This document shows positions 2,385-54,034 of a DNA stretch of 64,000 nucleotides, piece by piece (position 1 is the stretch's first letter; every line of letters starts with the position of its first letter). The DNA lies in NCBI RefSeq assembly GCF_018977255.1, contig NW_024704742.1, positions 103,108,001 through 103,172,000 on the forward strand. The letters are read 5' to 3'. A program made the position numbers and the translations under genes. Below the pieces are notes generated by a model. The model was not told the origin of the DNA, did not search any database, and saw nothing but the letters and a program-made list of their open reading frames with translations. The stretch comes from Callorhinchus milii (taxonomy: Eukaryota).

Positions 2385-3417
2385 TAAATTTGGCCTCCTC
2401 ATCCTCCTTTACCTCTCTGCTGCCTTCGATACCATTGGCCAATCTATCCTCATCCACTGCCTCTCCTCTCACCTCAACCTTCATGGTTCTGTGCTTGACT
2501 GGTTCAGATCGTACCTCTCACACCATCTCCACTTCATTTCCACAAACAATAAAGCTAACTTTCTTCAGTGAATGTCAACAAGACCGAGGCTCTCCTGATT
2601 GGCTCCCTTCAGCACCTCCATACCTCAGGTGCTGACAGCATCACCATCCAATGGTTGCACACTCCACCTTATTAAGCCAGTCCAGAAGCTTGTTTGACCC
2701 TCAATTATCCTTTCTACCCCACATCTGTGCCATGACTCGCTCTGCCTTCCCTCACCTCCGCAAAATCTCCCGGCTCTGCCACTGTCTCACACCGCAGGCC
2801 GTCAAAACCCTCATACACACATTCATAACATCCAGGCTTGACTATGCAAACTCTCTGCTTGTCGGCCTTTCAAACTCCTCCCTCCATAGGCTGCAGATCA
2901 TCCAGAACTCTGCAGCCCGTGTCCTCTCCCGCACCAGGCTCCGTAATCCCATCACCCCCATCCTCGCCCGACTCCACTGGCTTCCCATCACACAGAGGAT
3001 ACAGTTCAAGATCCTGGTCCTCATCTTCAAAGCCCTCCATGGCCTTGCTTCCCCCTACCTCTGCAACTTCCTAACCCCCTACCATCCTGCTTGCTCCCTC
3101 CACTCAGCGGGCTCCGGCCTGCTTCATGTCCCCCACCTCACCCGCCGCACCATTGGTAGGCGAGCTTAGGCTACTCTGCCCCCACTCTCTGGAACTCCAT
3201 CCTACAGTCCTTCTACCTCGCCCCCTCCCTTGCCTCCTTCAAGACCCATCTCAAGACCTTCCTCTTCAAATGTGCTTTCAACCACGCTCCACTACCCTCC
3301 ACCCGCCCCAATTCTAACCCCCAGCTCGGGTCCGAAACACTAACTGTCCAGCGCCTTGGGACATCCTCCTGATATGAAAGGTGCTGTACAAATGTAATTG
3401 TGTTATTGTTGTTGTTG
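2385..3417 (+). mobile_element. L2 LINE 3' fragment (RT C-terminal region and tail)
   Basis: ORF motifs LSAAFDTI, ITSRLDYANSLL, IQNSAARVL, LHWLP; (TTG)n tail. Confidence 0.92.
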
Positions 3418-4542
3418 TATTCACTTCATGGCTGTTTTAGGACACTGCTTTGCACCAATTGGGTGGCGCATTCATCTACAAATACACAGTTGCTGCACTT
3501 TACAGTATATCCTGTGAATTGTTCTGAGCCACATCAACAATGTAAGTCTCTATATCAAATACAAGAATTGTTATCATTATGAAGTAATATCATTATCCCT
3601 TCATGTTCTTGCACCTTCCTACCTCTCCAACCTGCTTACCGCCCACTCCACCAAGCACTGCCTCCACTTGGTTGGTTCCGGCCTCCTGTTTGTGCTTCGT
3701 GCCTTCCGTTCCACCATCGGTGGCAGTGCCTTCAGCCACTGCTCCCTGAAACTCTGGAATTCTCCAGGGATTCCTCCTCCTTGCCCCTTTTTCGCCATCT
3801 TCAAATCCTACCCAAATACCTTCCTTTTTGATCGTGCTTACGGTCACCTCACCCTCTCCCCCTGGCTCGCTGTCAGACTCCGCCACAGTGAAGCGATCTG
3901 GGACGCTATCCCTCGTGAAGGGCTCTATATAAATGCAAGTTGTTGTTGTTGTATTATATCTGATCTGTTCATGCTGAAGTGTTATAAGAATCTTGGAGCG
4001 TATCATCCAGTTGAAAACTAATGTTTCTTTGTTTGTTGTTGGTTATTTTCCGTATTGCTTCCCTCCTCTTCTGCTTGCTTTGCCAATCCTGGCTGGTAAC
4101 ACTTCTAAAGTTTTGCTCCAATCCCGTGTGGCCCTCACACAGCAGGCTCTGCCCTCAGTCTTTGGGGTGGACAGTACCTGAGTTTCCTGGTCTCATCCTG
4201 TTTTTGCGCCAATTAAAATATTTAATGCTGCTCAAGACTCTCAACCAGAAACCATTCGAAAACAGTAGCTGTGCTAGTGGAACAAAACGATTAGCTAATT
4301 CGGCAGAGAGCAGGATTGACCCTGTAACTTTCTGTCATGTGTGGTTTAATCCTTGGTTTAATCCTGCAGTAGGGTGTTACCTTTACCCACTAGGCCTTGG
4401 AGGGAGTTCCACTGGGATTTTCATAAATTTTAAGCAGTGCATCTATCAGTATAACAGTATCAGTATGTCAGACAGATTTTTTTCCAAATAAAGCCTTCCA
4501 GGCAGATATAATGCTGGCTTGATAACAGAAGGCTTAGATGGC

Positions 4543-4550
4543 TATAAATA
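4543..4550 (+). promoter_or_regulatory. TATA-box-like TATAAATA upstream of a leader-like exon
   Basis: Motif seen about 30 nt before the ATG at 4574. Such motifs arise easily by chance in AT-rich DNA. Confidence 0.25.
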
Positions 4551-4573
4551 GGCATTACTCAAGTTGGTCAGCA

Positions 4574-4630
4574 ATGACTCGCTGAGTCCTACATGCATCA
4601 GTGCTGGCACTTCTGTTATACCTACTTTCA
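4574..4630 (+). pseudogene. Decayed signal-peptide exon (MTR*VLHASVLALLLYLLS)
   Basis: ATG, hydrophobic core, gtgaat donor, one in-frame TGA. Confidence 0.35.
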
Positions 4631-5184
4631 GTGAATTACTTTGATGTGGATATATAAGCAGGGTGCATGGTTTGTTGATAACAGATGTGTGGGAAGGCAA
4701 AATGGTCTGTAATGTTCAGAGACTTAACATCAGACAGATGAATGGCTTGTGGCAAATATCATTGTTGTTGTTACTATAAACCAGATAATTTTTGTGGTAG
4801 ATTTAAATTTGCTGTATTTACGTTATATTGATGCATTCCTGACTGTTTGTCACTGTTTAAATAGTGACACAGTTTTAAATAGTGACACAGTTTTAGATAG
4901 TGACCTCTTATCACTGTATAATAGGTAACAACAACAACTTGCATTTATATAGCACTCCTCATGCTGAGTAGCGTCTCAGAGCGCTTGACAGTGATGGAGC
5001 ATGATGCCAAGCCGCAAGTGGTGGTTGTGGGGGAAGGGTACTGTAAGCATGGTCAAAGACGAAGGTCTTCAGCTGTGATCCGAAGATAGGGAAGGAGGGG
5101 GCAAGGCAGAGGGATTGATAGGCAAGGCGGAAGGATTCTGAATCCACTGTCCATAGGTTACAAAATCAATCTTCATTGAAACAG

Positions 5185-5620
5185 GGAGATATGGAGATAT
5201 TCCTGCTTCCAGTTAACAACAATGTCCCTTATTGTCCTGTGGTACAATATTGTGGGAGTAGTTATCTTGTGATATAGTAATGTGGCAACAGTTTGTACTT
5301 TTAAGTGAGAATCAACATTTTGCAACACTATAGAAATCTCCCGAAGACTAAGATGTCTATAAAGTGTGGACTGACTGTGAGGTTCTGTGGAAAGTGAATA
5401 CATCAGCAGTCAAAGACAAAGTGCAGCCGAATTGGACAGAAATGTCTTCTCTGCCACATATTATTTTCTTCAGTTTTGTGGAAAACAACACACAGAAGAG
5501 GTTCTGTCATTTATTTTGTTTGAAGCAAACTATTTTTGTTCTTTCAACAATGTGTTGGAATCTCTATAGAGCCCGAATTTGACCAAACAAGGGCAAGTTC
5601 CATCTCTTTGACAGCTGCAA
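5185..5620 (+). pseudogene. Decayed Ig V-like exon
   Basis: aaacag acceptor. Fragments across frames: WTDCEVLWKVNT, FSFVENNTQKRF, EANYFC, SSISLTA, in V-domain order. Confidence 0.3.
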
Positions 5621-6330
5621 AATCTGTCATTCAAATACAGTCCTCCCGTGAAATGTTGAGCTGCTTTGATGTTCCATTCACTTCCCGCTTCCCTGTGAGC
5701 AGCAGAATATTCTGTGGTTTGCATCTTCTACGAGCGAATCCTTCAGTTTCAGCATAATCATAATATGTTCTGAAATACGTACTATCATGAAATTGCTGTA
5801 AAATCTGGAGAATAAGAAACTTTCATATTCTCCATATTGCACACATTTTGCAAATATGTCTGAATGACACAATGGAATAAGAAGTCTAAAGAAAAATTCA
5901 CAGCCAATGTAATTGTACAGATGGTTTAAGAATGCCAAACAACAACAAGATTACATTTGTACAGCGCCTTTCACGTCAGGAGGACATCCCAAGGCGCTGG
6001 ACAATGTACAGCATTTCAGACCCGAGCTGGGGTCAGGGAGGGAGAAGGGAGGGGACTGGGGGTGACCGATGGCATGATTCATTTAAATTTGCTGTTTACG
6101 TTATATTGATGCATAACTGACTGTCACTGTTTAAATAGTGACACAGTTTTAAGTAGTGACATAGTTTTAGATAGTGAACTCTTATCACTGTATAATAGGT
6201 AACAACAACAACTTGTATTTATATAGCGCCCCTTATGCAGAGAAGCGTCTCAGAGCACTTACAGTGATGGAGCATGATGCCAAGTTAGCAAGTGGTGTGG
6301 GGAGCTGACCATAAGCATGGTTGAAGAGGA

Positions 6331-7210
6331 ACAACAACAACAACAAGATTCCATTTATAAAGCGCCTTTCACGTCAGGAGGACGTCCCAAGGCGCTGCAC
6401 AGTTGGGTCATGACCCGAGCAGGGGGAAATGGTCAGGGTGAGGGGAGGGAAGGGAGGGAGCGAGGAGGGGGGAACTGGTCAGGGTGAGGGGAGGGAAAGG
6501 AGGGAGCGAGGAGGGGGAAGAGAGTCGAGAGGGGAGCTGAAGGCACGGTCAAAGAGAAAGGTTTTGAGACCGGCCTTGAAGGAGGAGAGGGAGGAAGCGG
6601 CGAAGGCACTGGGGGATGGAGTTCCAGAGCCTGGGGGCTTAGAGGCTGAAGGCCCGACCACCGATGGTAGGGCGGTTGGGGCGGGGGACGTGGAGCAGAC
6701 CGGAGCCGGAGGAACGGAGGGTACGGGCAGGTAGGTAGGGGGATAGTAGGTTGGAGAGGTAGGAGGGAGCAAGGCCGTGGATGGCCTTGTAGGTGAGGAT
6801 GAGGATCTTGAAATCAATCCTCTGGGGGATGGGGAGCCAGTGGAGGCGAACGAGGGTGGGAGTGATGTGGTCCCGAAGCCTGGTGCGGGACAGTACACGA
6901 GCTGCAGAGTTCTGAATGACCTGCAGTGTGGAGGGAGGTGCCGGGAAGGCCGGCGAGGAGAGAGTTCCCGTAGTCCAGCCTTGAGGTGACAAAGGCGTGA
7001 ACCAGGGTTTCAGCAGCGTGAGGGGTGAGGTAATGCCGTAGTCTGGCGATGTTCCGGAGGTGATGGAAGGCGGTGCCAGTTGTGGTGCGGATGTGAGGGA
7101 GAAAGGACAGCTCAGGGTCGAACAAAACACCGAGGTTCCTGACTGGCTTTGAGAGGTGGAGAGTGCAGCCTTGGATGCTGAGGTGGAGAGTGCAGCCTTG
7201 GATGCTGAGG
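6331..7210 (-). mobile_element. Young 5'-truncated L2 LINE with a 27-bp tandem duplication at its 5' end
   Basis: TSRLDYGNSLL and LHWLPIPQRIDFKIL motifs; (CAA)n tail at 6331; near-identical to 47897-48428. Confidence 0.93.
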
Positions 7211-9792
7211 TGTTCAGGTGCAACCTGAAGATAGAGAAGGAGGGGGCAAGGCGGAGGGATTGATAGGACAAGGCGGAAGGATCCTGAATCCACTGTCTAA
7301 AAATTGACTGCAAATTTACAATATTCAGGCCTTACTTGATTAAGTATATTCATTAAACAGTGTAATTACGTTATTCTATTGCAATTTACTAATTGATAGA
7401 GGAAAGGTTTTTACAGGCCCCTTGTCTTGTCACCATGTGTTTATTGACAAATTGTTTTTGCTACAAGATTAGTTGATAAAAACAGTACTTTAAACAGGGC
7501 AGTATTGCATCTCTTGTTCTGCTAATGAATTAGATCCCAACTGCCTGTTCAGGTGGATGTTAAAGATATTATGGCACTATTTGAAAAGAGAAAGTAGTTT
7601 CTCCTTGTGTCCTGGCCAACAGTCCTCCAGAGATAATTGGTCATTCACTTGTAGCTGCTTGTGGGACATTGCTTCTTGCAATTTGGTTTCCAGATTCACC
7701 TACAAATGAACAGTCACTTCACTTTACAGAAACTTTCTGAAGCATTTTAAAATGTTCCGCGTTATGGATACTATACCAAACGGAAGGATTATTATTATTA
7801 CATTGGTATGTGTCAGTTTGTGTAGATGATGTCTGCACATCTTTTTTTACGGCTAGCTTCTCATTCTTTATAGACATTTGCATTTCTGACCATCTGCAAT
7901 AGCGGTCTTTTAGAGCTGCTGGCATTTTGAATCACTGAGCCACATTGTGGCCTATTCCTAGCCTTTGCAAAACATTGTTTCCTTTGGTTAGCAGAGTCCT
8001 TGGTCTCTTGTTAAACCAAAATTGAATGGCTGGGAAACACAAAGCTTCTAGTGCAGTCAGCATGTGACCAATTTGTCATAGACAATCATAATACGTGATA
8101 AAGCACTCTATTACACAATAGTGTAATAATAATAAGCCTGGCATTTGATATAGTGCCTTATTTTCAAGATGTCTCAAAGAGTTTCACAGAATATATTGTT
8201 AAGTGAATTGACTGTATGTTTTGTGGGCGAATCGCAGCAGCCAATTGCACACAGCAGTGTTCCACAAACAGTCGTGGATTGAGTCGTGACTATATTATTA
8301 TTTTTTTTTGAAGAATTATTACCCCCAGAAAAGTGATGCACCAATCAACTAAAAACCGGTTCCTACTTATTGCTTGGTAAACAGATGGATGTGTAAGGAA
8401 ACTTGCCTAAGGTTTTGCCCTGCCCGGGAATTGAACCCCGGTCCTCTCACTTGTGAGTTGCGTGCTCTAACCACTAAACTATAGGACTCCACAAAAAGAG
8501 CAGCAACTTCATATTAGGTTAATAAGATTAACCAGGAGCCAGCCTTTCATCTTTCTACATTATGTACTATAGTCATAATTTATATGCATTACAACATGCA
8601 GTACAAGAAAATATGCCATACAATAAATTCTAATAATCTTTAAAAATATTCCCTAAAACAATTTCAGAATACAGCTCAATACTTTGATGGGAGAATGAGA
8701 GGATGGGTATGCTAGATGAGATCCGGTTCATATTATGGGGAATGTAGCAAAGGTTGTTCAGAAATTAAGGCCATTCACTAATATAAGTAAAACTGACTCC
8801 ACCATTTACCATTGCCAAACATGACCTCTGTGCTCCTCGACCAATCCCTCCTCCTCCACAAATGTGATATATCTGCTGAAACAGCTGCACCCGTCCTTTT
8901 GGCCAGAGGGATCCCAGTTTACAATGACCTCGTGCCACTCTGATTGATACTTTGAATAAGAGCTTTCCACATCATTATGGTTTTAAATAGTATCAGTACA
9001 GAATATGACATAAGTCTTGGCTGTAAATCAGTGTCGCTCTCACAGTTTGATCTTCAACCATATGTGCTTTGATCATTATTTATGGAGGTATGAATACAGC
9101 TTTCCATGTGCAGCAGTCAATATTGATGACTGTTTCTACTCTGAGCATTATTTTACAGACGGCAATCTATAATTCTATTTCCTTTTCTCATGTTTTTAGT
9201 CAAACTATCAGCAAGATAATTGCATGTCTATAGCTCAGAACAATAGCCAGAAATGCATATCAGAAATCATAACACAATAAAATGCCAAACTTGCATTGCA
9301 ATACTGTATGGTGAAAGCCAGAATGATACCTTTGCCAATAACCCGTTCTCTATGCATTTTTGAATTGCATTGCTTTTATTATTGTGAAAACTAAGCCATT
9401 TTATGGAACACATATGACTATTTCATTAACTGAAGAATGTAGATGTAGAGAAACTTCTGTCACACAGAATTCTCATCTTATAAACAAACAACTTTTTATT
9501 GTTTGTCCTTAAACATAAACTGCTATTTTAACAATATATAAAAAAAGGAACAGGAAGAGGCCATTCAACACATCGAGCATGTACTGCCAGTTTATTAGAT
9601 TTGGGCAAATCTTTTAATCTCAATCCCTGCATTTTCATATCCCTTAATGCCACTACTACCCAAGTATTTGTCTAGCCCTATTCATTATGTCTTGAGCCTT
9701 GGATAGACAGAATTTATTGTTGTTGTCTCTATAGTTTTCTAGGCAGAGCATTCCACATATTCACATCTTCACCTTCTGTTTGAACAAAATGA

Positions 9793-10801
9793 ATGCTCCC
9801 CCTTGGTGACGTCATCCGCAGACATGGGGTCAACTTCCACATGTATGCAGATGACACCCAACTCTATCTTTCTGCCTCCACCCTCAACTCCAGGACCACT
9901 GCTGTCCTGACAGACTCCCTGTCAGACATCAAGTCCTGGATGAGGGCAACTTTCCTACAGTTGAATGTGAACAAGACTGAGGCCCTCCTGATTGGCTCGC
10001 GCCAGCGCCTCAGCACCTCAGGCTCTGTCAGCATCAACCTCCATGGTTGCACACTACAACTCACCAGCCAGTCAGGAGCCTGGGTGTCTTGTTCAACCCT
10101 CAACTGTCCTTTCTCCCCCACATTCAAGCCATGACCCACCTCTGCCTTCCCTCATCTCCGTAACATCGCCCGACTCCGCCACTACCTCACCCCTCAGGCC
10201 GCTGAAACTCTTGTTCATACCTTCATCACCTCCAGGCTCGACTATGCAAACTCCCTGCTTGTCAGCCTTCCCAACTCCTCCCTCCACAGGCTGCAGATAA
10301 TCCAGAACTCTGCAGCCCGTGTCCTCTCCCGCACCAAACACCGTGACCCCATCTCCCCCATTCTCGCCCGACTCCACTGGCTCCCTATCCTTCAGAGGAT
10401 CCAGTTCAAGATCCTGATCCTCACATACCAAGCCTTGCCCCATCCTACCTCTGCGACCTCCTAACCCCCTACCAACCTGTCCGTTCCCTCCACTCAGCTG
10501 GCTCCGGCCTGTTCCACATCCCCCGATCCACCCGCCCCACTATTGGCAGGAGAGCCTTCAGCCACTCTGCCCCCAACCTCTGGAAAACCATTCCCCAGTC
10601 ACTCCGCTCGCCCCCTCCTAACCTCCTTCAAGTCCTGCCTCAAGACCTTCCTCTTTGACCATGCCATCGGTCACCCCCCCTTCCCTTCCCCTCCCTTCCC
10701 CCCCTCGACCTCAGCTCGGGTCTGAAATGCTGCACTCTGTCCAGCGCCTTGAGACATCCTCCCGACATGAAAGGCTCTATACAAATGTCATCTTGTTGTT
10801 G
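9793..10801 (+). mobile_element. L2 LINE 3' fragment
   Basis: Catalytic YADDTQLY motif and LQLNVNKTE; 3' tail with (TTG)n. Confidence 0.93.
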
Positions 10802-12409
10802 TATTTTTCGCCCATCTATTTGCCCACTATTTGCCTATGTAATGGATCCCTGTACCAAAGAGTAGCGTCATCCATGACAAGATTATTGACAAGATTCCAT
10901 TTGCTTTAGTCTATTCCAAGCACATACCAAATGACACATTAGACCTGAACAATCCCAACCAAAAGAAAGTGTTCAAGTGCAGCACAAGTCAAGTGCTGTC
11001 CCTTCCAATATTGTCAATCCAATTGCTCTGCTGTTGACCGATATGATTCTGTGTTTCTTAAACAGCCAGCACAGATGCAAAGGACCAATTGGCCTTATTC
11101 TGAGCTGTAAATTTCTGTGGTTTTATGGAGAGCCAGTTACTCCCAAGTTTCTTTCTGAATTCAGTAATAGTGGAATCAACATTATGGTACTGTATTCTTA
11201 ATTCTGTTCTTTGTTTGAGGAACAAGGATAAAATGTGTTTCAAAATATCTTTCCCCTGACTTCTGAATAATGTTATGACTGAGCAATCCAAATAAAACAA
11301 AGCTGAACTGGACCAATGTAAAATGTTGTGCGACTCCATTCAACTGAGTTCATCTGAGTTCCCAGTGAATGAGAGTCCACATCACAGGAGTGTTTAATTC
11401 AAGACTATTTCTCTCAGATGACAAATATGGGAAATAGGAAAAATAATCACAATAGTGCAGTCAGATGTCTTCTAAGATTGGGGGTCAAGAATCCAATAGT
11501 CTCATTGGATTCTTGGCTTCCACAATCAGCCATGAAGTGAAACAATCTCACACAAGATTAACAATTATTCAATCCTGAAGGTAAGTGCCTCATGCTAACT
11601 CACGGTTACTCCACTCTGGCCACTCCAGCACAACCTACATCAGATCATGTGCAATTGGCTGCCGCGTTTCGCCCACAATATACAGTCAATTCACTTTACA
11701 GTCTATTCTGAGAAGCGCTTTGAGACGTCGAGAAGACATGAAAAACATTATATCAAATGCAAGGATTATTGTTTATTATTATTATGTGAAATACAATTCC
11801 TTACATTTAGCATGACGCATTGCTGGTTCATGGCAGGTTTCTACATTTGTAAATCCAGTTGCTATTTTTGTATTTTTTAGCTAATTTTGTAGGCCAATGA
11901 ACAGTAGCTTTAGATCATAATAGTCCTTACATTTGATATACCACCTTGTCATGTTGAAAGGTGTGTATTTATAAACATATACAACATCCAATTTGAGCAA
12001 AGCTATGTCCCACAGTCAGCCATGAAGTGAATTACCTCTCAAGCGAGAGAACTTGGGTTTGATTCCCGGGCAGAGATAAACCTTAGACAAGTTTCCTTAC
12101 TCCACATGCCTCTATTTACCTAGCAGTAAGTAGGAACCCAGTGTTTAGTCGATTGGTGGATCGCTTTCTGGGGGTAATAATCCCTTAAAAAAATAAGAAG
12201 AATTTGATCAATTAATCCACAACTGTTTGTGAGCCACTATTGTGCACAATTGCCTGTCATGATTAGCCCACAAAATATACAGTTAATTCACTTTGCAGTA
12301 AATTTTGTGAAGCGCTTTGAGCCGTCTCAACTTTGTGATAAGGTGCTATATAACTCCTTCCAAAAAAATAAAGTGATACTGTTGTGTCCCACAAAAAGTC
12401 AAAGGGATC

Positions 12410-13735
12410 GTTCAGCTGCCTCTGCTCTTCCAATCACTAACCCCTCCCCATCTCCCCCTCAAACCCCGGCCCCTACCCATCCCTCCCTCCATACCTTCGA
12501 ACCTGACTCCCCCTCCTCTCTCATCACCACCATAACTCACATGAAACCAACCATCTGCTCCCTCGACCCCATCCCTACCTTTCTCCTTAACTCCTAGCAC
12601 CACCTCCTTGCCCCCCTACTCACAGACATGATAAACCTGTCCCTGTCCACTGACACCAGTCCCACCCCTCTAAAAATGGCTGTCATCACTCCTATCCTTA
12701 AAAAATCCTCCCTGGACCCATTCCTGCTCTCAAACTACCACCTCATCTCCAACCTCACTTGCCTTTCCAAGGTCCTGGAACAAGTTATTGCTTCCCAGCT
12801 TCACTCCTTCTTCTCCCGCCACTCCCTTCACAAACCCCTCCAATTGGGTTTTCATGCCACCCACAGCACAGAAACAGCTTTGGTCAAAATGACAAATGAC
12901 ATTTTGTCCATCTGCAACCAGGGCTCCCTCTGTCTCCTCGTCCTCCTTGATCTCTCTGCTGCCTTTGATATCGGTGACCACTCTATTGTCCTCCACCGCT
13001 TCTCTCTCACCTCAACCTTCATGGTTCTGTCCTTGAATATTTCAGATCCAACCTCTCGCACAGGCTCCACTTCATCTCCTCAAACAGCTTTTCCTCTAGC
13101 TCCTGCACCATCTTGTGTGGAGTTCCTCAGGGCTCTGTTCTTGGTCCCCTCCTTTTAAATATCTATATGCTCCCACTTAGTGACATCATCCACAGACACG
13201 GGATCAATTTCCATATGCATGCAGATGACACCCAACTCTATCTCTCTGCCTCCACCCTTGACTCCACACTTGACTGTCAGACATCAAGTCCTCGATGAGA
13301 GCTAACTTTCTACAATTGAACATCAACAAGACCGACGCTTTCCTGATTGGCAGTCGTCAGCGCCTCCACACCTCAGGCACTGACAGCATCACCATCCAAG
13401 GATGCACACTCCACCTTACTAAGCCAGTCCTGAACCAGTCTATTCCAAGGTGTAGGTGTAAACCATTGGCCTTCTGCCACTCTGCTCCCAGCTTATGGAA
13501 CTCCATCCCGTAGTCCTTCTGCCTTGCCCCTTCCCTTGCCTCCTTCAAGACCTGTAACAAGAACCCCCCTCTCCTTCTTTGACCGTGCCTTCAGTTACCC
13601 TTGTTCCCCCCCCCAGCCTCCACCCTCCCCGATCCCGATCCCCAGATCGGGTCTGAAACACTGATTGTCCAGCACCTTGGGATGTCCTCCCGATGTGAAA
13701 GGCGCTATACAAATGTAATTTTTTGTTGTTGTTAT
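12410..13735 (+). mobile_element. L2 LINE RT fragment with an internal deletion
   Basis: LDPIPT, HSTETALVK, LLDLSAAFD, GVPQGSVLGPLL and HADDTQLY motifs; tail at about 13735. Confidence 0.93.
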
Positions 13736-14540
13736 TGTGCGCAATTGGTTGCCGCGTTTCGCCCACAAAATATACAGTCAATTCACTTTACAGTATACTC
13801 TATGAAGCGATTTGAGACATCTCAAAGACTTGATAAAACACTATATCAAATGCAAGGATTATTATTATTATATCAGATAAAAGGATTAGTATTATTATTG
13901 TTTTATCTGGTGGATTGTTGGCAGGACAACAGAAGAAACTTTCTTTTCCTTTCAGATTTTGCAATGGGATCTCTAATGTTCACCTGGACAGGCAGATAGG
14001 TTCACGGTTTAATGACTCCAGGTTTTGCTGCAACTTCCACAATGGAGCTTTCTGTCTAATCCCATTCCCTTGCTTTTTCATCTGATCCATTAATGTTATT
14101 TTCCTGAGGTTTTTAATGCCATCATCTATTCCAAGGTGTAGGTGGAAACCATTTGTGGGTGGGTGAACATAAGATCTTTTAAGATCTAAAAATAAATATG
14201 GAAAACAAAGAGTGAATCATTTCTTCTATACAAAACAAACATCAATAAACGGAAATGTAGAACTGGATATAAAATCTAATAACCGCACAAAGTAATAACA
14301 AAAAATCTGCCCACATGTTATGGTCACATTGCTTTGAAAATTAAAATTCATGGTTCTTTCTCACTCCTGTGAAAAAATATCTTTTTATCAACATCCAATA
14401 TTACTGCACGACTGTCAATAGGACATTTGATGGCACCTTTGTTACCTTTCATGCTGTACACAAGCTGGGTTTAAGGATCTCAATAACATTTTCCTCCTAC
14501 ACAGTACTCTTTGTCTTCATATTCCCTCTATTTTGTTCAG

Positions 14541-15014
14541 GCTCAGATAAAACCGACTTGTCAGAAAAGCCTAGGAATTGCAATTTGTATACTGTAACCA
14601 TCTGTGCAAACGCTGTGCTTGGTGATTCTGTTAGATTAAAATAAAAATAGATACCCAGTGGCCCAGCATTGCTGAGGTTGCTAATTTTAGCTCCTATGTC
14701 GAGATATGTATAAAGGAGCAAAATGTCAGCGGGTTGTACTTATAGAAGATAATTCTTCTGATACTCATATGTCTCCAAGCTGATGAGAGATTCATAATGA
14801 AATGAGGAAAACAGGCCAATTTACCCTTTCCTTTAAGGAGGTAGTTGTACATTATGTAGCTGAAAAGGTGCGTGGTCAAGAGATTTATTTATGCCAGATC
14901 AAAGCTGCCGTTAGTGACTACTGATTAGTTTATTGATGGGAAAAAGTGATGTGTCAATAATCTGGTTAACAGTAAATTGCACTCGACACTCCCCCAACCC
15001 CCCGCCACCTGAGA
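14541..15014 (+). pseudogene. Decayed Ig V-like exon, CD300/pIgR-like
   Basis: Strong polypyrimidine acceptor and gtatgg donor; 474 nt, phase 1-1. Motifs NAVLGDSVRL, LCRDMYKGAKCQRVV, KTGQFTLSFKEV, IYLCQI, SIIWLTV. Several stops and compensating frameshifts. Confidence 0.5.
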
Positions 15015-18000
15015 GTATGGATATGCAGGCACCGACTGGTGGTTACATGTAAATCAGGAATGGTTTGCAGACAGATTATTTTCAACGCTTCATTCTTGCA
15101 CTGGATCCTGCAAATTTCAAATTCCTTCAAAAAATTCCCAATTGATGGTAACCTCATTGAATTTCTGCAGAGTAACCTCGGCTGCTTCAGGCACATTTGC
15201 TCCTTATCAATATTCACACGCTTGGCTTTAGTTCAATACATGAAGGGAGCTGCTATTAATATCCAGCATAACCAGGGATTCAGATTAAGAAAAATGTCAG
15301 TCTGACCTCTTAGTCGTCCAGATTGTAATGAGACCACAATTATGAAGTAAGCTAAAAGCCCCACTGAATTTGATTCCTGTTTAAAACAGCATTGCCACAC
15401 AATAACATTCACCCCTCCACTAAACTGCTCACAATTCCTAGAGTTGTTTTTACATATTCGCTACTCTGTGAGCATAAACAAATCTAGTCATTAATCTTGT
15501 TAATTTTATCTTATTTAGTGTAATGTTTTTTAAGTGTCATTATACTAGAGTATAAAATTGTTTCCAATAAAAAGTCTTGATTCAACAACAATAACTTGCG
15601 TTTATATAGCACCCCACATGCATGGTAGCGACCTGGAACGTTTCACTCAAATGTACCTCAATCATTTACGTTGCACATTGTGACAATGCATATACTGAGT
15701 GTCATTTATGTTATGGTACATACATTTACTAAGCATTTAGTTTATCCTTGGGAACACACACTTTACATCGCAATTTAGTATTTCTGCAAAAAATAATGTA
15801 GTAGTGATTGTGGACATTTTCATGTATTTCCGTTCAATGATATTTCAGAATGTCATTTTGAACTAAAAATAACATCCATTAATTGTTTCCCATTGCTCCA
15901 TCCTGAAAGAAACGCTGTTGCTATGTAACCGCTCTTCCTCAACCCAAGCAACAGTCACTGAAATACTGGTACCAGAGCACTCTTTACTGTTCATGAGAGT
16001 TGATTGGGCTACCTTCAACAAAAACAACAATTTACACTTTAAGGTATCCTCCTGTTTCATGTCAGAAGAACACCTCAAAGTGTTTCAGAGAATCGACCGG
16101 AAGCCCAATCATGTGGTGGAGATGGGAGATGGGGGTGCGGGGGAGATGCTGACATGGATGTGGGGAAAGGTGTCCAAATGCACAGTCAAAAAGAAACCTA
16201 CAAGCCAGACCTACCTGACCGAGTTTGTCATGTCCCCCTGGCTCTCTAGTGTCCTGGACCTGATGCTCTAAGTTCCCGCCTGCTGCTCCATTGATCTTGC
16301 TGCACAGCCTGGTTCAGTCAGGTTTACTCATGCAATTTCTTTCCAAATTACAACTTTTGATTAATACAGAATTTAATTAAAAAAACACAGCCAATCTGCC
16401 GCTTCTTTCTTCAGAACAAAATTTTGCTTTAATATAGCGTTTTTCATATCGAGAGGACCACCACAACAACTTGCATTCGCATAATGTCTTTCACACGGGT
16501 AGTGTCTCAGAACGCATAATAATGGCGTATTTTGACACCGAGCCAGGGAGAGAGGGGAGGTGACTGCAGGCATGGTCGAAGACATGCAATCTGAAGACGG
16601 GCAAAAAGGGAGCAAGGCAGAGGGATTGAGGCAGAGGGTTCCAGAGATTCAGGTACAGTGGCTGAAACCACAGCCGTCAAGAGTGAAGCAGAGGAGCTGA
16701 GCTGAGGGGTGGGGTAGAGGAGTGGAATATGAGCAGGTCGGAAATATAGGCAAATGCCAGAACATATCAAAGACTTCACAGAGCCCACTGGGAGCCCAAG
16801 CTGAGGGTGGGAGAAGTTGAGGAATTGTGTGTGGCAGGGGCTTATTCACTGTATTTATAAGTGCAGACCTCGACATAAGGGATATTGGACTTGCTACACA
16901 TGTTATCTTTGCATCAATAAGCTCTCTATAAGCAGTTTGCACTGCACATGATTTATTATTATTGAGCAATCTCTTATAACATTTCATTCAATAATGATGG
17001 GGGAGGGGGTCTCCATCTGTTTTCACTGCAATATGATGCATCGCTGAACTCCAATAAGAGGATAGTCTTTCTTACTCCCATTCCTGACCCAGAGTATTCT
17101 TACATTATTTTTATCTTACTGATTTTTGAGTAAATTAAATCAAAGAAATAATGAGACTGCAGTGACAGGCCATCAATCTGCTCTCCTAACAACATAACAA
17201 ATCTGGCATTTGACGTTAATATAGTTTTGCACCATTAAACAGAGATAATCTAGGACAGGACACAATATCCATTCTTTGCTTTATTTAATTTTTATGTGTT
17301 TCTTGTAATGTGTGCGCAGGGGTTAGCAAAAATGTATTTTCTAGTGCTATCCAACCATTTGTCTATCCAAGAATCTTATTGTGCTAATGCAAAGGTTTAT
17401 CATGCTAACACGCTGATATCTCCCTATTTGTGAGTGGCCCCTTGAGTCTGTCTGTTGCAAACTGGAGCTTTGAGCAGTTTGCAAAGTAGGTTTGTAGAGC
17501 AACAAAGACAAAGCCATCTGAGTTGGAGAGTGAATAGCCTCAGTAACATATTGCTTGTCCGCAACATGACTTACTGACTTACTTGCTCAATTACATACAG
17601 GTGTTTAATTATTGACTTCCTCTTGTCAGATATTGGATTCCTTCCTAAGGAAGCGTCAGAGCCAATCTACAGCAGTGCCCTCAGGGAAATAACTTCTATT
17701 TCCAAACAGACCTGTCTGCTCCCTCCACTCAGCAGACTCTGGGTTACTCCATCTCCCCCGGCCTGCCCTCCCCACCATTGGCGGTCGGACTTTCAGCCTT
17801 TCTGCTCCCACTCTTTGGAACTCTATCCCACAGTCCCTTCACCTCGCCCCTCCCTTGCCTCCGTCAAGGCCCACTTTCAAGACCCTCCTCTTCAACTTTG
17901 CCTTTGGTCACTCCCCTAGCCCTATCTTCCTTGCCTTCCATTGCTCCTAATCCGAATCCCCAGCTCAGGTGCAAATTTTTGACTGTCCAGCGTCTTAGGA

Positions 18001-19694
18001 CGTCGTCATGATGTGAAAGGCGCTTTACAAATGTAATTTGTTGTTGTTGTTGAGTCTCTATTGTATGCTACAACAGAAATGTGGCGATAGTCCACTCTAA
18101 TCAGCTCTAAATATGGGAGGCCAACGGTTCAATCACTATGGAGTCAAACGGAAGAGTCTTATGTCTTCAAATTTGTGTGTTCAAAACCTGCCCACATGAA
18201 ACCCACATGTTTAAAGCAAGGTGTGGAGGCAGAATAAGGCATTATTTTCCTAAATAATTTATGCCAAATACAAGTGTGTGGTGTTCACTATAATTCTTTT
18301 ACAATAGCTATGCCATGTTGGATACGCTCTGCATTGCATCCCCTAAACAGCCATCAATTGAGTTCTGGTGGGTCATGTTAAAATATAGGGACTTCTTTAA
18401 TCATTAATTTCAAGAAACTCTGTTTTATTTTGGGATCCAGTATGCACAGTGGCATTTAGCGATGCCAAAATAAACTCACAACTTTATTACCCATCAAATT
18501 ATAATGCAAAATACATTTAATTATATGATTAACAATCAATCTATCCTTTTAATGAATGGCACCTTTAATTCCCTCATTACACATGCATTAACATATAGTG
18601 TGTAGTACAGCTACTCACTCATAAAAGACCCTCATTATGGCTGTAAAGGGTTGCTCCATTAAAAGCACGCACTGATATACATTCCAAAAGACAGTCACAG
18701 CAGCACTGAGGCCTTGGTAAACTCATACAATCTGAGTTTAACAACAGCTGGGAGGAAAATAACTGTCAGGAGAGTATGAATATTAGCCAGGAGATTATGA
18801 TGGAACGGAAGCTTGCAAGGTTAGTCAGTGTAACGTGCACAGACGCATGCACACCTACTCACCATCCTACACCTACATCTTCACCTTCACCTACACCCAC
18901 ACTTTAATATATTTACACTTTACGTCATCAGTTCCAACACTTAAATAGGAACAAAGCCTGCCATCTTCCAGTGTGCGGTGTGTGCTATCAATCAAGTTCC
19001 ATAACAACACTAGACTCAAACCACTAAACTCACATTGAGAGAAATACTGGAGCTGATTAAAGTCAGTTATGGTCATTCGTTGGATTTTGCTTTACATATG
19101 ATAAATAATTGATGCCATGAAATTGATACTACTGGTGATGCTATATCTTGGAAAGCCAATTTGAAACCTGGTAACATTGGATGGATAACTGAGAACATTG
19201 CTGTACTCTTCCTGACTTTGTCTCTATTCTGATTTAGTTGAGCACCACAGTTAGAGCTGGGAAAATGCTGATTCAAGAACAACAACAAAATTACATTTGA
19301 ATAGTGCCTTTCACGTCAGGAGGACATCCCAAGGTACATTAACGGTTGGGAGTAAGTGTTAATTTTTCCCTCCCTAACCCAAGGCAGAGACCAGCAAACT
19401 CAGCATAGTTGATCGTTATTGGAAATAATAATAATAATAATCGTTGCATTTGATATAGCACCTTATCATGTCTTTGAGACGTCTCAAAGTGTTTCACAGA
19501 ATATACTATAAAGTGAATTGACTGTATATTTTGTGGGCGAAATACAGCAGCCAATTGTGCACAGCAGTATCTCACCAACAGTCGTGGATTGAGTGACCAA
19601 CCCATCACTACTCTTTTTTGTGAAGGAATTAATACTCCAGGAAAAGCTGCAGTGTAAATGGTTCTCTTTATCGAATACCTCCTTACTATTTCAG

Positions 19695-19784
19695 AGCAGG
19701 GGCACTATTTATGCCAATCTGCCCAGTTATGAACTAACCCAGCCACTTGCAAAAAGAGTTGGCCCCAAGCCTCAAAATCACTAA
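19695..19784 (+). CDS. Intact terminal exon, copy 1 ([29 protein letters not shown]), tyrosine-motif cytoplasmic tail of an unidentified receptor
   Basis: ctatttcag acceptor; open to TAA; synonymous-biased divergence from copy 2. Confidence 0.6.
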
Positions 19785-20825
19785 CCTGTTATTATTTGCA
19801 TCTCTGCAATATAACATTTAAAAATAATTGCATAACTTATATTTTATATAAAATGTGAACCAGTGAGCTTCTGGTTCAATTGTTTCTATCTATAACTACA
19901 CCATGGGCTTGCACCGTGCCACATCTTTTTTTTAAAGTCAAGCTTTTTATTAGTTCCACTTGCCAGCTCTTTGTCCATATCCATTAATGCATTTACTAAT
20001 CAGTGTCTATCTAGATAACTTTTGACGGATTCTATTGATCCAGCCTGATTAAAAACACAAACATTTTCCAGTGAGTATATATCTAAGTCAGGGTTAACAC
20101 CAAATATGAAAAGTGAAAGAATATTTCACTGATGAACCACCCAGTCGTCCATAAATAGCATACTTGGTCTTTTGCAATATAGTTCCTTCCTGGCGGGCCA
20201 TTGTCTGTCAGCCTGGCTGATGTATGTCAGCCTGGGTCAGTCGGTAGCACTCTTGCCTCTGAGTCAGAAGATTATGAGTTCAAGCACCACATCAGTGCTG
20301 AGAGTGTGCTGTATTGTCAGATGTGCTGTTTTTTAGATGTCTTAAACCAAGATCCCATCTGTCTGTTCTGGCAGACGTTAAAAATCCCTTGGCACTATTT
20401 GAAAAGAGAAGGGAGTTATTCCTGGCCAACAATCCCCTAAATAAAGCAGTTGGTTATTCAATTAATGCTTTTTGCACAATTGCCTCTTGTGTTTGCCTAC
20501 AGTCATTCAGTATATTCTGTGAAACCTTTGAGTCATCCTGCAGAAGTGAAAGACGCTATGTCCAATGTAAGGATTTACGATTCACAACTGAAGGTTCGCT
20601 AATCATCATATGCAGTCAAGAATGGGTGAGTCGGAAAAAACGTATGGTCACCAATTCAGAATGAATAATCAGAATCAGACAGTTCTTTCAAATTAAAATT
20701 CTTACAATTTAAGATTAGATATTTCTTCTAATTCCTCAATAGCATCTTCTAAATCAGAGAGTAGATCATGGGCTGCTCTTTGCTGGAAATGGTTCTCTTT
20801 ATCCAGCACCCCTTTACTATTTCAG

Positions 20826-20915
20826 AGCAGGGCCACTATCTATGCTAATCTCCCCAGTTACGAACTAACACAACCACATGCAAAAATAGTTGGCTCCAAG
20901 CGTCAAACTCATTAA
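20826..20915 (+). CDS. Intact terminal exon, copy 2 ([29 protein letters not shown])
   Basis: Same acceptor, length and stop position as copy 1; 13 differences in 90 nt, 7 of them synonymous. Confidence 0.6.
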   Translation, partial: SRATIYANLPSYELTQPHAKIVGSKRQTH

Positions 20916-21437
20916 CGTTTTTATTATTTGCCTTTCTGCAATATTAGCATTATTTGCCTCTCTGCACGGTTCTCTTCAATTGTGCCTTCAGCTCCCCTCT
21001 CAACTCTCTACCCCCTCCTCGCTCCCTCCCTTCCCTCCCCTCACCCTGACCATTTCCCCCCTGCTCGGGTCCCGACCCAACTGTCCAGCACCTTGGGACG
21101 TCCTCCCGACGTGAAAGGCGCTCTATAAATGAAATCTTGTTGTTGTTGTTGTATTAGATTTTAAAATAACTGCTAACTGCATGTTTTAATATAAAAAAAG
21201 GTCCAGTGGATCAGAGCAGCCTCAGAACAGGTGAGGTGCAGATTTATGCTCATGGCTATGTGACATTGCTGAGTTTCCAATTTCCCTGAAGAGGTGGTAG
21301 CAAGGGGTTGGCTTGATAGGCTGAAAAGTCCTCCCTCAGAGACAGACAGAGAACAGAGGGTGAGCTGTTTTCTGGCTCGCAGTGCACGTCTCAAGAGGAG
21401 CATTGGCAGGGAGCTAGGATTCATGCACTTTCTTTGT

Positions 21438-21648
21438 CATAGAATTATACAGCACAGAAGGAGGCCATTTGGCCCATCGTGTCTGTGCCGGCTCTTTGAA
21501 AAGAGCTATCCAAATCAATCCCACTCCCCTGCGCTCTCCCCATAGCCCTGCAAACTTGTCCTCCCCAAATAATTATCTACTTCTCTCTTAAAAGCTGTTA
21601 TCGAATTGGCTTCCACCAACCTTTCAGGCAATACATTCCAGATCCGAT
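21438..21648 (-). mobile_element. CR1 LINE 3' end
   Basis: Near-identical to 27110-27320. Confidence 0.88.
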
Positions 21649-21716
21649 GGTTGTGTGATTCAGAAAATTGAGAAAAGAGTAGAGAAAATAATCTGGAAAA
21701 TTAGAAGGGTTCATAC

Positions 21717-21921
21717 CATTGGCAGAGGTTATAGGGGGCAAGGAGTGACTGTACCCCTGGCACCTTTAGCTCCCACTCCAGTTCTCTTCCCACCACTCTC
21801 CATGTTGCCTCATACCTTGTACAACCTCGTGAGAGGCAGCGCAGAGAGCAACGGGAAGGTTGCACCACTAATGAGTCTTAAACCATTGCCCCCGCAGTTA
21901 CAAAACGTAGCTCGCCCACTG
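21717..21921. mobile_element. hAT-like MITE
   Basis: Imperfect TIRs CATTGGCAGAGGTTA / TAGCTCGCCCACTG; 8-bp TSD gttcatac / gttcatat. Confidence 0.65.
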
Positions 21922-22025
21922 GTTCATATCCTCAAAAAATATACAAGAAATGATTGTGGTATTTATTGTTGCCTAACTTCCTGTTTTATTGCTTTATACT
22001 ACTGACTCAGTGATAGTAACAATAG

Positions 22026-22272
22026 TAGGGTGATCACATTTTGTAAACCAAATCTTGGGACACATATAAAAAAATTTAACTCACCACAATTCCTGGCGCT
22101 GGCTGTACAGGAGAAGCTTGTTCGATTAATGTTTGTATTTCTCTGATGAGTGTATCTGTTTTAGAATGGTATTGTCCTTGTTCAGTTTGATCCTGAACTA
22201 AAAACAGGGCAAATTTGGGCACGAACCTCATCCGGGGTCTGCCCCGGAAATCAAGGATGTATGGTCACCCTG
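22026..22272. mobile_element. hAT-Blackjack-like MITE
   Basis: TIRs TAGGGTGATCA / TGGTCACCCTG; degenerate 8-bp TSD aacaatag / cacaataa. Confidence 0.65.
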
Positions 22273-25200
22273 CACAATAAACCCTTGGTTTCAAATTATT
22301 CCAATTAAAATTTATAATCCTATTACAGAGCCAATTGATTTCATCTGACAAAACCAACGTGGTTCAGCATCAAAAAGTTTGCCTGATTGTGGTTTCAGTG
22401 CAGCAAATGGAACGAGATTAAAAAGTGTCTGGTTCAAGATTAATTTTTCAGAATTGAAAATTGCAGGTCAATAATACAAGACTGTCCTAGTTATTTCCCA
22501 TGTTCCTGCTTCTTCATCTGATTCCAGGGCATGCCTGAGGATTTTATCACAAATTGGACAGAAAGTTCTGAAAGTATCACAAAGTATCCAAATGTTATGA
22601 CTCAACCTTATATCCTTCAGACCATTAAGAAGTTTATTAATCCCTTAACAGTGTCTCCTCCGTTTTATAAACTAATACAATTGCTTGGTTCAGAGCAAGT
22701 AACATTTATAAAAATGGATGGACAGGACCAGAGAGCAATGCAGTTACACTTCCAAATAGCTCTGCTGGTGTTTACAGTGCCATCTGATTACCCCGACAGC
22801 TCGATTGAGTCATTCACATTACTGAGCAGCAACATATTTATTTGTTTTTAATATAGATGTACAATTTTGACTTGGATTTCAAAATACCTTGTAAAAGCTT
22901 CAATGGAAAATAGAAAACTGAATCATGGAGGTTAGAAAATCATTCACCAAATGGCCTTGAGCAAGTTTTGAGTAAACTGAAAAACAAAGAAACAGTAACT
23001 TTAGTGAGTTTTTTTCCCTTCATAATAATAATAATAATTTCCAATCATTCAGCATTTCTCTGCTTCTCTGGTGCATTTGATGCTACTGGTCTTTTTTTTT
23101 ACCTAACAATTACTTTTCTGTATGGTTTCCTACAATTCTTTGAGGAGATAATGTCCAGATAAAAAATGGTCATTCACTTCATGGCTGCTTATGAGACATT
23201 ATTATGTGCAGATTGTCTGCCACGCCCGTTTATGAATACAAAGTCACCATAGTTTACAATAAAATCCTTTGGAGTGCCGTGAGACGTTTTGACGACTTGA
23301 TAAGGCCCTATATCAAATGCAAGGATTGTTGTTATAATTAAGTGGATGTTGGGAGAAATCCAATGGAGATAATTTACTTGCCTTTCCAAAGGCGATTGAT
23401 GAGATCTAAATGTGAGACGTTTAAAGATGATTAAAACTCATAGAATCAATGACAAATTCTTGTAGCTAATTGGGTTGAAAACAGGCTTAGCAACTAGCTT
23501 ATAAGCATGAGTAAAGATTCCAAAGATCTGTGTTCCTTACTGTTCCTGAGAAGGAGGCTGAATCTGACATTGGAAGGGAAGAATATTAGGGAGGTTTTGC
23601 TGGATTTACTTTCAGATTAGAGAGTATCTATGCAGAGTTTTCACTAATTGATGCGGTGGAGTCTCTGACATTCCATGATCTATGAATGTATGATCTGTGT
23701 GGGCTATGGAGAGAGTGGGCTTTTTGATGAAATGTCATCAATCACTCCATGCTTTCTTATCCTATTCTTTTATAGGATTCATTTTATATGTTCAAATTCA
23801 AACAATCATGGAAGGTAAAGTGACTTAAGAGTGTTTGCAGAAAAAGTGCTAATTTATAACATGTGAGTTTTTTAGGGCTAATTTGTGTAAATTTCCTACT
23901 TTGTTCTTTAACTATATAATAATATAATAATAACCTTGCATTTGATATAGCACTTTTCACGTCTTCTCGATGTCTCAAAGTGCTTCACAGAATAGACTGT
24001 AAAGTGAATTGACTGCATATTTGTGGGCGAAACGCAGCAGCCAATTTTGCACATCAGTGTCCCACAAACAGTCGTGGATTAAAAATGACCTATTTATTAT
24101 TGTTTTGTTTTGGAGGGATTATTATCAGGCGTGTGGAGTAAGGAAACTTGCCCAAGGTTTCGCATTGCCTGGAATTGAACCCAGGTGTCTCGCTTGCAAG
24201 GCAAGTGCTCTAACCACTGAGCTACAGGACTCCACAACTAAACTCATATTCCACATGTCTGGTGTCTTTAGTAGAGAAGACAAATGCACAACCTTCTCCC
24301 AGAGCAATGCCAATAGCCCCTACAACAGGGAGATTCCAGGAATTGGCATAATTCATAGGGAAAATGCCAGTCTCCAATTGGGGTGAAAACATTTTTTTTT
24401 AGTGATCAGGGAAAGATAGAGTGGAGTGATCATCATTACAGCACAAATAAATACTGTACATGTTCCCAATATTTTGAGGTTATTTAAATTTTAATTTGAG
24501 TAACCTTTACCTTAATTTATCTGCATTTCACAATGTGTCCATATCACATTTAATGGAGCATACACTTTCTTGGTTCTCAGCTATTTTAAAGGGAAAGAGT
24601 ATAAAAGCGTGGGGAAAGAGCATAACATATTTAGAAGAGATAGCACCAGTTGGGAGTTAACTTATCGCATACACAAATGGCTTTCTTCTGCACTGTAATT
24701 TCTATGACATATTTCTGTAGTCTTTCTTCCAGTCTGCCTCTGTAAGATGCTCCCTCTAATGGCCTGGCTGAGAGCTAGCAGAACTAATTCAATTCACCTG
24801 GGATCTTTTACACATTTATTTAATCACAACACATTCAGGCATGAGCAGCATATGATAAATGTGCACAACACAGCTGTTCTGGCATTGGATGTAAAATACT
24901 GTATGCCTGGGAGTTAGCTGGAAAGCAGGGGAGAGGGGAAAATGAAAAAGGAGGATAGAAATCAGAATACTGACGACAAAATAACAACAACAACTTACAT
25001 TTATATAGCACCCTCCACGCAGGGTAGCGTCTCAGATAAGCAATCATCACTTTAATTCAAAATATTCATCTCCCTCTCTCCACACCTTTTCTTCACCACC
25101 CTTCCCCCCAAGCAGCACTCTCATTGCAAAACTGAACTGTTGAATTTATGACAAACCTGAGCTGCAGATAATTCAAGTTTTTCAACTTTCTCTACCACAA

Positions 25201-29837: not shown

Positions 29838-29862
29838 NNNNNNNNNNNNNNNNNNNNNNNNN
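29838..29862. other. Assembly gap (25 N) between oppositely oriented L2 tail fragments
   Basis: N run seen directly. Confidence 0.99.
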
Positions 29863-47600: not shown

Positions 47601-47646
47601 TCCTACGACAATGGGCTTGCCCAGGGAGCTGGACTGGAATCACATG
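47601..47646 (+). CDS. PGGT1B: Geranylgeranyltransferase type I subunit beta, exon 6 (SYDNGLAQGAGLESH/G)
   Basis: Acceptor ...ctgttttttcag and donor gtaagc. 46 nt; the peptide matches the human PGGT1B segment as recalled, and its phase joins exon 7. Confidence 0.96.
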
Positions 47647-47896
47647 GTAAGCATGATTTTTGCAATTCAAAAATTCTTAATTGGAAGTGGTTTATATCAG
47701 CACATTTGTTTCTCTGTCATGTTGCAAATGATTGTTGCTCTCACATACACGTATGTAAATCTTATTTCCTGTAAATGGAGTAGGTTTAAAAGCAGTGTCC
47801 TGGTGCAGTGTAGTATCTTACCAATGCACTTGTGCCATGAAATGGCAGTATAGCTTTTAACTCCAGATGCTCTGTTTTCTGGCTGGCAGAAAAGTA

Positions 47897-48428
47897 CAAC
47901 AACAACAAGATTCCATTTATAGAGCGCCTTTCATGTCGGGAGGACGTCCCAAGGCGCTGTACAGTTGGGTCAGGACCCGAGCGGGGGGAAATGGTCAGGG
48001 TGAGGGGAGGGAAGGGAGGGAGCGAGGAGGGGGTAGAGAGTCGAGAGGGGAGCTGAAGACACGGTCAAAGAGAAAGGTCTTGAGACCGGCCTTGAAGGAG
48101 GAAAGGGAGGAAGCGGCGAAGGCACTGGGGGATAGAGTTCCAGAGCCTGGGGCTGAGAGGCTGAAGGCCCGACCACCGATGGTAGGGCGGTTGGGGCGGG
48201 GGATGTGGAGCAGACCGGAGCCAGAGGAACGGAGGGTACGGGCAGGTAGGTAGGGGGATAGTAGGTTGGAGAGGTAGGAGGGAGCAAGGCCGTGAATGGC
48301 CTTGTAGGTGAGGATGAGGATCTTGAAATCAATCCTCTGGGGGATGGGGAGCCAGTGGAGGCGAGCGAGGGTGGGAGTGATGTGGTCCCGAAGCCTGGTG
48401 CGGGACAGTACACGAGCTGCAGAGTTCT
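47897..48428 (-). mobile_element. Young 5'-truncated L2 in PGGT1B intron 6
   Basis: Near-identical to 6331-6915. Confidence 0.92.
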
Positions 48429-50256: not shown

Positions 50257-50610
<354 letters not shown>

Positions 50611-50677
50611 TAATAATTCTTGCATTTGATATAGCGCTTTTCACGTCTTCTCGACATCTCAAAGAGTTTCACAGAAT

Positions 50678-50980
50678 AATAATAATCCTTGCATTTGATA
50701 TAGCGCTTTTCACGTCGGGAGGACGTCCTAAAGCGCTTCACAGAACACACTATAAAGTGAATTGACTGTATATTTGTGGGTGAAATGCGGCAGCCAATTG
50801 CGTACAGCAGTGTCCCACAAACAGTCGTAGATTGAATGACCAATTTATTATTTTTTCTTGAGGGATTATTATCAGGCGTGTGGAGTAAGGAAACTTGCCC
50901 AAGGTTTCGCCCTGCCGGGAATCGAACCCAGGTCTCTCGCTTGCAAGGCGAGTGCTCTAACCACTGAGCTACAGGACTCC
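50678..50980 (-). mobile_element. Full-length tRNA(Ala)-derived SINE
   Basis: Reverse complement of the 34073 family. Confidence 0.9.

Positions 50981-54033: not shown

Positions 54034-54034
<1 letters not shown>

Follow-up and report, generated by a model that had tools for sequence, protein, structure and literature searches.

Anatomy of the duplicated cassette

Two copies of a short direct repeat in the genome of the elephant shark, Callorhinchus milii, each resemble the last exon of a protein-coding gene. The question is whether they are such exons, in use or as relics, or whether the resemblance is a coincidence of locally copied DNA. The window, meaning the whole 64,000-nucleotide stretch that was analysed (C1:103108001-103172000), contains the cassette as one two-copy direct repeat, which a repeat search of positions 19400-21200 placed at 19653-19790 and 20784-20921, with 85% identity. 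The copies have the same orientation and a start-to-start spacing of 1131 bp. In both, a pyrimidine-rich lead runs into a ctatttcag acceptor, followed by 29 codons and a TAA at the matching position. The two exon frames, 90 nt each, are in frame with one another, and the acceptors are identical. The cassette and its duplication are thus direct observations, and the description in an earlier reading made from the sequence alone (the sequence-only reading), of two repeats 1.13 kb apart with this acceptor, 29 codons and TAA, is borne out with correct coordinates. Its estimate of repeat length, ~165 bp, was too short, although the repeats themselves are real: the full homologous unit is ~214 bp, comprising 19653-19865 in copy 1 and 20784-20947 plus 21152-21208 in copy 2, which is interrupted by a LINE.

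The continuation beyond the LINE was recognized by alignment of 19810-19865 with 21152-21208, which scores 51 against a mean of 25.4 and a maximum of 36 for 100 shuffles. Identity between the copies is 77/90 in the frame, 36/42 in the lead, and 27/30 and 44/55 in the two parts of the trailer. No homology was found outside these limits, to the left of 19653/20784 or to the right of 19865/21208, where local alignment scores of 31, 31, 16 and 29 lie in the shuffle range. The homology therefore extends from ~42 nt ahead of the acceptor AG to ~13 nt beyond a common TATAAA and ends abruptly on both sides, at CCAGTG on the right. The TATAAA lies ~62 nt 3′ of the stop in both copies (LINE not counted). 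Neither AATAAA nor ATTAAA occurs within the block; its sole conserved polyadenylation hexamer is this weak variant, in A+T-rich DNA, which counts against a terminal coding exon.

Table 1. Features of the duplicated cassette and adjoining repeats (window positions)
Feature	Position	Strand	Basis or remark
SINE upstream of copy 1, outside the cassette	19400..19620	-	up to 63 similar matches per 50-nt bin in 144 kb; strand taken from reverse-oriented local matches
Copy 1, intron-like lead, pyrimidine-rich tract and ctatttcag acceptor	19653..19694	+	36/42 identical to 20784-20825; sharp start
Copy 1, 29 codons and stop	19695..19784	+	translation, substitution counts, permutation test
Copy 1, trailer, 3′ UTR-like, TATAAA at 19847-19852, ends CCAGTG	19785..19865	+	alignment, hexamers
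SINE-like repeat between the copies	20190..20590	+	comparison with 144 kb
Copy 2, conserved lead, identical acceptor	20784..20825	+	alignment to copy 1
Copy 2, 29 codons and stop	20826..20915	+	translation, substitution counts
Copy 2, trailer, first part, to the LINE insertion	20916..20947	+	alignment to copy 1
LINE 3′-tail fragment, 204 bp, within copy 2	20948..21151	+	multi-copy in 144 kb; TATTAG on both sides
Copy 2, trailer, second part, TATAAA at 21190-21195, ends CCAGTG	21152..21208	+	alignment, hexamers

The LINE 3′ fragment accounts for the apparent end of copy 2 at 20944. It is flanked by TATTAG at 20942-20947 and 21152-21157, a target-site duplication, and this hexamer occurs once in copy 1, so the fragment is an ordinary insertion into copy 2 made after the cassette had been duplicated. 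Relatives of the LINE tail in 144 kb of local sequence include five copies (at least 141 nt) that are 91.7-94.3% identical and one at 77%; judged from these identities the insertion appears fairly young, again younger than the duplication. Its age does not discriminate between an old constrained and a young neutral copy. That it splits the copy 2 trailer is a point against a terminal coding exon. When positions 17500-22500 were compared with the same 144 kb, LINE tails were located at about 17700-18050, 19250-19350 and 20950-21160.

At the 5′ junction of the LINE, 20948-20966 opens with a 17-20-nt near-repeat of the trailer ~25 nt upstream (TTATTTGCC..CTGCA), which a profile search with the cassette also picked up (E = 5). 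It may be a microhomology or a template-switch scar.

Substitutions follow the reading frame

The 13 differences between the exon frames fall 1/5/7 on codon positions 1/2/3. The seven at third positions are all synonymous, and the other six are replacements. Within a 14-codon core the copies differ by six synonymous and no replacement changes, and over the last 12 codons by one silent and five replacement changes. A recount thus reproduced exactly the 13 exonic differences, seven of them synonymous, and the core contrast of six to none that the sequence-only reading had reported. With Nei-Gojobori site counts, the 29 codons carry 7 silent changes in 20.5 sites versus 6 replacements in 66.5 sites, and the core 6 silent changes in 10.2 sites versus none in 31.8 replacement sites. 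The dN/dS test that had been put forward as a check accordingly gives dS 0.46 against dN 0.10 over all codons, a silent excess with Fisher P = 0.0095.

A permutation test was applied to the 138-nt ungapped block: its 21 differences were shuffled, with the number of transitions kept, and each placement was scored by its longest silent run in whichever of the six frames gave the highest value. A run of at least six synonymous differences arose in 0.38% of 20,000 random placements (P = 0.0038). The frame favoured in the real pair begins at the acceptor and ends with the common TAA; on the minus strand, as read from the sequence, the sole open frame of the block places the variable sites at second codon positions. 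Local direct repeats of at least 100 nt form five families in the window, four of them two-copy, and the same test on the other three two-copy pairs (D2, D4 and D5) gave P = 0.95, 0.44 and 0.98. Multiplied over the at most four such pairs, the per-pair value becomes about 0.015, so that for this window the silent-run signal is real at a level of about 1-2%; the cassette was chosen out of a very large scan, in which a P of ~0.004 is expected somewhere by chance. The codon-periodic placement of the substitutions is itself a direct observation, and the past coding constraint proposed in the sequence-only reading gains statistical support from the Nei-Gojobori counts, the six-frame permutation and the control pairs; the anatomy of the cassette also fits it.

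The main alternative is that a neutral non-coding piece of ~214 bp gave rise to a nearby copy, through repair or template switching for instance, and that drift followed, with frame, acceptor and silent run arising by coincidence. This is a serious rival, though somewhat less probable than a terminal coding exon. Total divergence of the core (6/42) equals that of the non-coding lead (6/42), so that the core is no slower overall and is unusual only in where its changes are placed, a point that favours neutral drift and counts against a terminal coding exon. Silent-site divergence is higher in the core (0.59) than in the tail (0.12). The abrupt ends of the homology would also fit plain duplication breakpoints. 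Against coincidence, the per-pair P value already allows for frames and positions and stays at about 0.015 over the pairs of the window, and the frame that it favours coincides with the acceptor and the common stop. Moreover, tandem duplication is a commoner event than the appearance, at a distance of 0.9 kb, of a dispersed 214-bp copy whose flanks lack homology.

Copy number and nature of the block

The 991-Mb assembly holds the block in at least two places by DNA and at least two by protein. A profile of the two copies found no third cassette in 144 kb of local sequence. This low copy number is directly observed, and the possibility, raised in the sequence-only reading, that the repeat is a transposon fragment is rejected, since two copies in such an assembly are not a dispersed family.

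A duplicated functional element that is not translated, such as a lncRNA exon or a regulatory module, is distinctly unlikely. It would suit the roughly even conservation of lead, frame and trailer (78-90%), but third-position periodicity is not expected of it. The block has no match in Rfam, and its predicted RNA fold is ordinary, no better than those of shuffles (z = -0.93).

Quite improbable, too, is a captured mRNA end, that is, a 5′-truncated retro-copy of a 3′ end, or a rare low-copy mobile element present twice. The homology does stop near a polyadenylation-type hexamer, and a SINE adjoins copy 1 and a LINE copy 2. Yet no A-tail follows either copy, the 42-nt intron-like lead with its acceptor is unexpected in a processed copy, and no parent copy was found elsewhere in the assembly by DNA or protein. 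The LINE within copy 2, with a target-site duplication of its own, arrived later than the cassette duplication. A processed mRNA fragment was rejected on the first three of these grounds: the block has no A-run, includes the intron-like lead and has no parent copy.

Genomic setting

The cassette has a FEM1-like gene on one side and the 3′ half of PGGT1B on the other; PGGT1B encodes the beta subunit of geranylgeranyl transferase type 1. Upstream, the closest gene in the same orientation is a 470-residue open frame ~97 kb away (local coordinates L012:2611-4020) with ankyrin-TPR-ankyrin repeats, which we take to be FEM1-like. Downstream, PGGT1B exons lie on the plus strand, with Pfam Prenyltrans in four frames (2 of 73 frames, containing an N run, had been removed beforehand). 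A tblastn search with a shark protein mapped PGGT1B residues 198-218, 213-276, 267-310 and 311-367 to 47601-57469 (+), and the best exon matches several shark proteins at 94% identity. Only about residues 198-370 are present; searches of the window, of the 80 kb upstream and of the assembly as a whole found no exon for residues 1-197. A 25-N gap at 29838-29862, inside a LINE tail, may hide the 5′ exons of PGGT1B or mark a mis-join. Because these exons are missing and the gap is present, the assembly is incomplete in the region of the cassette, and this makes missing exons upstream of the cassette plausible.

The human order at 5q22 is presumably FEM1C, CCDC112, PGGT1B, all on one strand, which would put the cassette at a possible site of the CCDC112 3′ end. 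A role for the cassette as last exon of a CCDC112 orthologue is nevertheless unlikely: between 80 kb upstream and window position 47000, the open frames rich in E, K, R or Q were all antisense frames of transposons.

The region is a transposon-rich intergenic gap, with repeats covering 39% of window positions -40000 to 19650 as measured against 144 kb alone, and this favours the drift of neutral DNA. The strongest flagged CpG-rich stretch, ~30.2 kb before the window start, was considered as a promoter and rejected; it consists of about nine GGTGGTCGGCCTGGGCGGCGG-like units of 21 nt, a minisatellite with the look of a CpG island. The scans found no host gene or homologue, and no promoter at this strongest CpG-rich stretch, which again fits neutral DNA.

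Search for a host gene, transcripts and relatives

Profile searches of the surroundings were dominated by transposons. On the plus strand of window positions 1-23000, 118 frames of at least 45 residues contained LINE domains only and no Ig or other non-transposon Pfam domain. In the 80 kb upstream, the 108 plus-strand frames of at least 75 residues matched only LINE reverse transcriptase or endonuclease, apart from the FEM1-like frame. On the minus strand of the window, 131 frames had no Pfam match (3 of 134, with an N run, having been removed). A search for the cysteine-tryptophan-cysteine pattern of V-type Ig domains gave one match, which is not credible, and hydrophobic 21-mers in non-repeat DNA gave three matches that are unconvincing. 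No donor exon, transmembrane exon or Ig exon was thus found upstream of the cassette in these plus-strand scans, which counts against a terminal coding exon; small exons escape scans of this kind.

The peptide was compared with two very large protein libraries. Region 24-63 of the 63-residue open frame that contains it had no relative, among longer or near-length proteins, in a library of 5.8 billion clusters that includes shark proteomes; this library is clustered at 90% identity with representatives shown, so that a tail unique to a non-representative member would escape. Among 1.84 billion representatives in the other library, a profile of the two peptides matched two repeat-rich proteins, spuriously in both cases (6 and 3 stretches). 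The lack of a relative in either library is a further point against a terminal coding exon. In the full-text literature, the strings TIYANL, IYANLP and YANLPSY returned unrelated foreign-language words only.

For positions 19640-21000 no RNA run is listed; four runs of unstated kind, all from one study, contain this sequence, and eight 'RNA?' runs under the same species label carry almost none of the sampled words. On positions 2000-21999, contigs of the runs X5-X8 number 10,422 to 43,004 per run and are mostly transposon-derived, and the junctions at 19695 and 20826 are unreadable in them. Among the 15 of 1172 joints listed for these contigs, all lie between repeats and have no GT..AG ends. 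The sequence-only reading had been staked on a homologous protein or a spliced read in some relative; neither appeared within the reach of these searches, and that reach is short, given a 29-residue peptide and RNA contigs swamped by repeats.

Some low-depth contigs (3-6) of X5 and X6 match unique stretches of the window exactly, at 3991-4440, 8746-9041 and 14733-15413. They could be intronic pre-mRNA, DNA carry-over or a novel transcript. Positions 4015-4491 form a 158-residue open frame, with no Pfam match, in which a hydrophobic, signal-peptide-like stretch begins at a methionine three residues in.

The conserved tyrosine motif

Both copies have T at -2 and L at +3 of the tyrosine in TIYANL. 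As given in PMC8631942, the ITIM consensus is S/I/V/L-x-Y-x-x-I/V/L and the ITSM consensus is T-x-Y-x-x-V/I. TIYANL agrees with the ITIM at +3 (L) but not at -2 (T), and with the ITSM at -2 (T) but not at +3 (L), and is on these residues a hybrid of the two and strictly neither. The resemblance of TxYxxL to ITSM and ITIM motifs noted in the sequence-only reading therefore stands, and its fit to either strict consensus does not. The Y-A-N of the motif is invariant in both copies and matches pY-x-N, the docking consensus of the Grb2 SH2 domain, as in transmembrane adaptors. Patterns of six and three residues, such as these, have low information content.

Comparison with known signalling tails gives a mixed picture. 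In SLAM-family and PD-1-type receptors, small exons encode the cytoplasmic tails. The cassette shares with the ITSM of these receptors the T at -2, the Y at 0 and a short tail, but has L rather than V/I at +3, and neither a transmembrane or Ig exon nor a sequence relative was found for it in the searches above. With the ITIM it shares Y-x-x-L, with L at +3, and it differs in its T at -2, outside the consensus, and in that no receptor body was found in the frames scanned. Its likeness to a Grb2-SH2 site would be the Y-A-N of both copies.

The sequence-only reading had proposed that the copies are alternative last exons or the tails of two paralogous immune receptors. Alternative last exons are possible. 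The tails of two neighbouring immune-receptor genes, suggested by the motif resemblance alone (T-x-Y-x-x-L and Y-x-N), are highly improbable: the 1131-bp spacing, taken up by a SINE and unique filler DNA whose open frames match no family, leaves no room for a second gene, the plus-strand frames scanned over 100 kb upstream contain no Ig-type domain, the 131 minus-strand frames of the window match no Pfam family, and TIYANL falls outside both strict consensuses. Nor does the immune-receptor reading as such find support, with no Ig-type domain in the plus-strand frames scanned, no protein relative in the libraries and neither strict consensus fitting.

A candidate terminal exon

The explanation that we tentatively favour is duplication of a terminal coding exon, either still in use or a relic, on which constraint acted during at least some of its history. 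Such an exon would explain the silent-site pattern, the frame bounded by the acceptor and the common stop, and a homology that reaches from the branch-point region through to the cleavage region; the span is what an old duplication with only its functional part conserved would leave. The cassette would consist of a 3′ splice site, 29 codons, a stop and a trailer of ~80 nt ending after TATAAA, and would belong, now or formerly, to a protein-coding gene. After the duplication, the 14-residue core would have been kept in both copies, with silent sites free to change, while the last 12 residues would have diverged. If the gene is in use, splicing from an upstream donor to either acceptor would yield two alternative C-terminal tails with one tyrosine motif, and the phosphorylated tyrosine of Y-A-N-L could serve as a docking site for an SH2 protein. 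The splicing, translation and phosphorylation of the cassette, and its role in a receptor or adaptor, are in this scheme what we infer.

The copies are adjacent and homologous, have equal length and frame and each have an acceptor, as tandemly duplicated exons do. Tandem exon duplication yields homologous alternative exons (reviewed in PMC9013439, PMC9741552 and PMC8373072). Known examples concern internal exons, mutually exclusive, in identified and mostly ancient genes. Compared with these, the cassette is alike in its adjacent homologous 90-nt exons, in one frame, with their own acceptors and partly purifying-type divergence, and unlike in that each copy has a stop and a trailer, and is thus terminal, and in that the flanks between the copies lack homology.

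A more specific form of the terminal-exon explanation is rather unlikely: a lineage-restricted elephant shark gene, with small or unassembled upstream exons, that encodes a small membrane adaptor or inhibitory receptor with two alternative tails. Both tails would carry the hybrid ITIM/ITSM/Grb2-type TIYANL and then differ in their last 12 residues. If this were true, the locus would use splicing to switch between SH2 partners, at the root of jawed-vertebrate immunity.

The implications depend on which explanation is correct. Real alternative last exons would reveal a gene that annotation had overlooked in a genome of key reference value for early jawed vertebrates, and a rare duplicated terminal exon where the known cases are internal. 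Relics would testify to the loss of a gene from the FEM1C-PGGT1B interval. If the pattern is due to chance, it warns that six silent differences in a row (P about 0.004) are on their own too little in a scan this large. The missing 5′ half of PGGT1B is a separate sign of assembly incompleteness here.

An exon-like stretch on another contig

A degenerate pattern of the core, with up to three mismatches allowed, matched three extra places genome-wide, versus one for the reversed control. Among these, only that at C5:11402127, which is also the best extra match, with two mismatches, is exon-like. At about C5:11402118-11402162 (+; local coordinates L015:1490-1536), a pyrimidine tract and tcctttcag are followed by ATIYANVPTSEF and TGA. 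The stretch is unique DNA, fits the strict ITSM and has 7 of 10 third positions identical to copy 1. In 135 frames of the 40 kb upstream there is no receptor body or Ig domain. By its sequence the stretch may be a paralogous ITSM-type terminal exon, or a chance match; were the cassette part of a lineage-restricted gene, ATIYANVPTSEF* could be a paralogous tail. A DUF4628 gene lies ~25 kb upstream of the stretch, as two open frames on the plus strand (L020:2447-2836 and 4383-4964; E = 1e-30 and 3e-48). The second closes with its own stop, and this gene is separate from the exon-like stretch.
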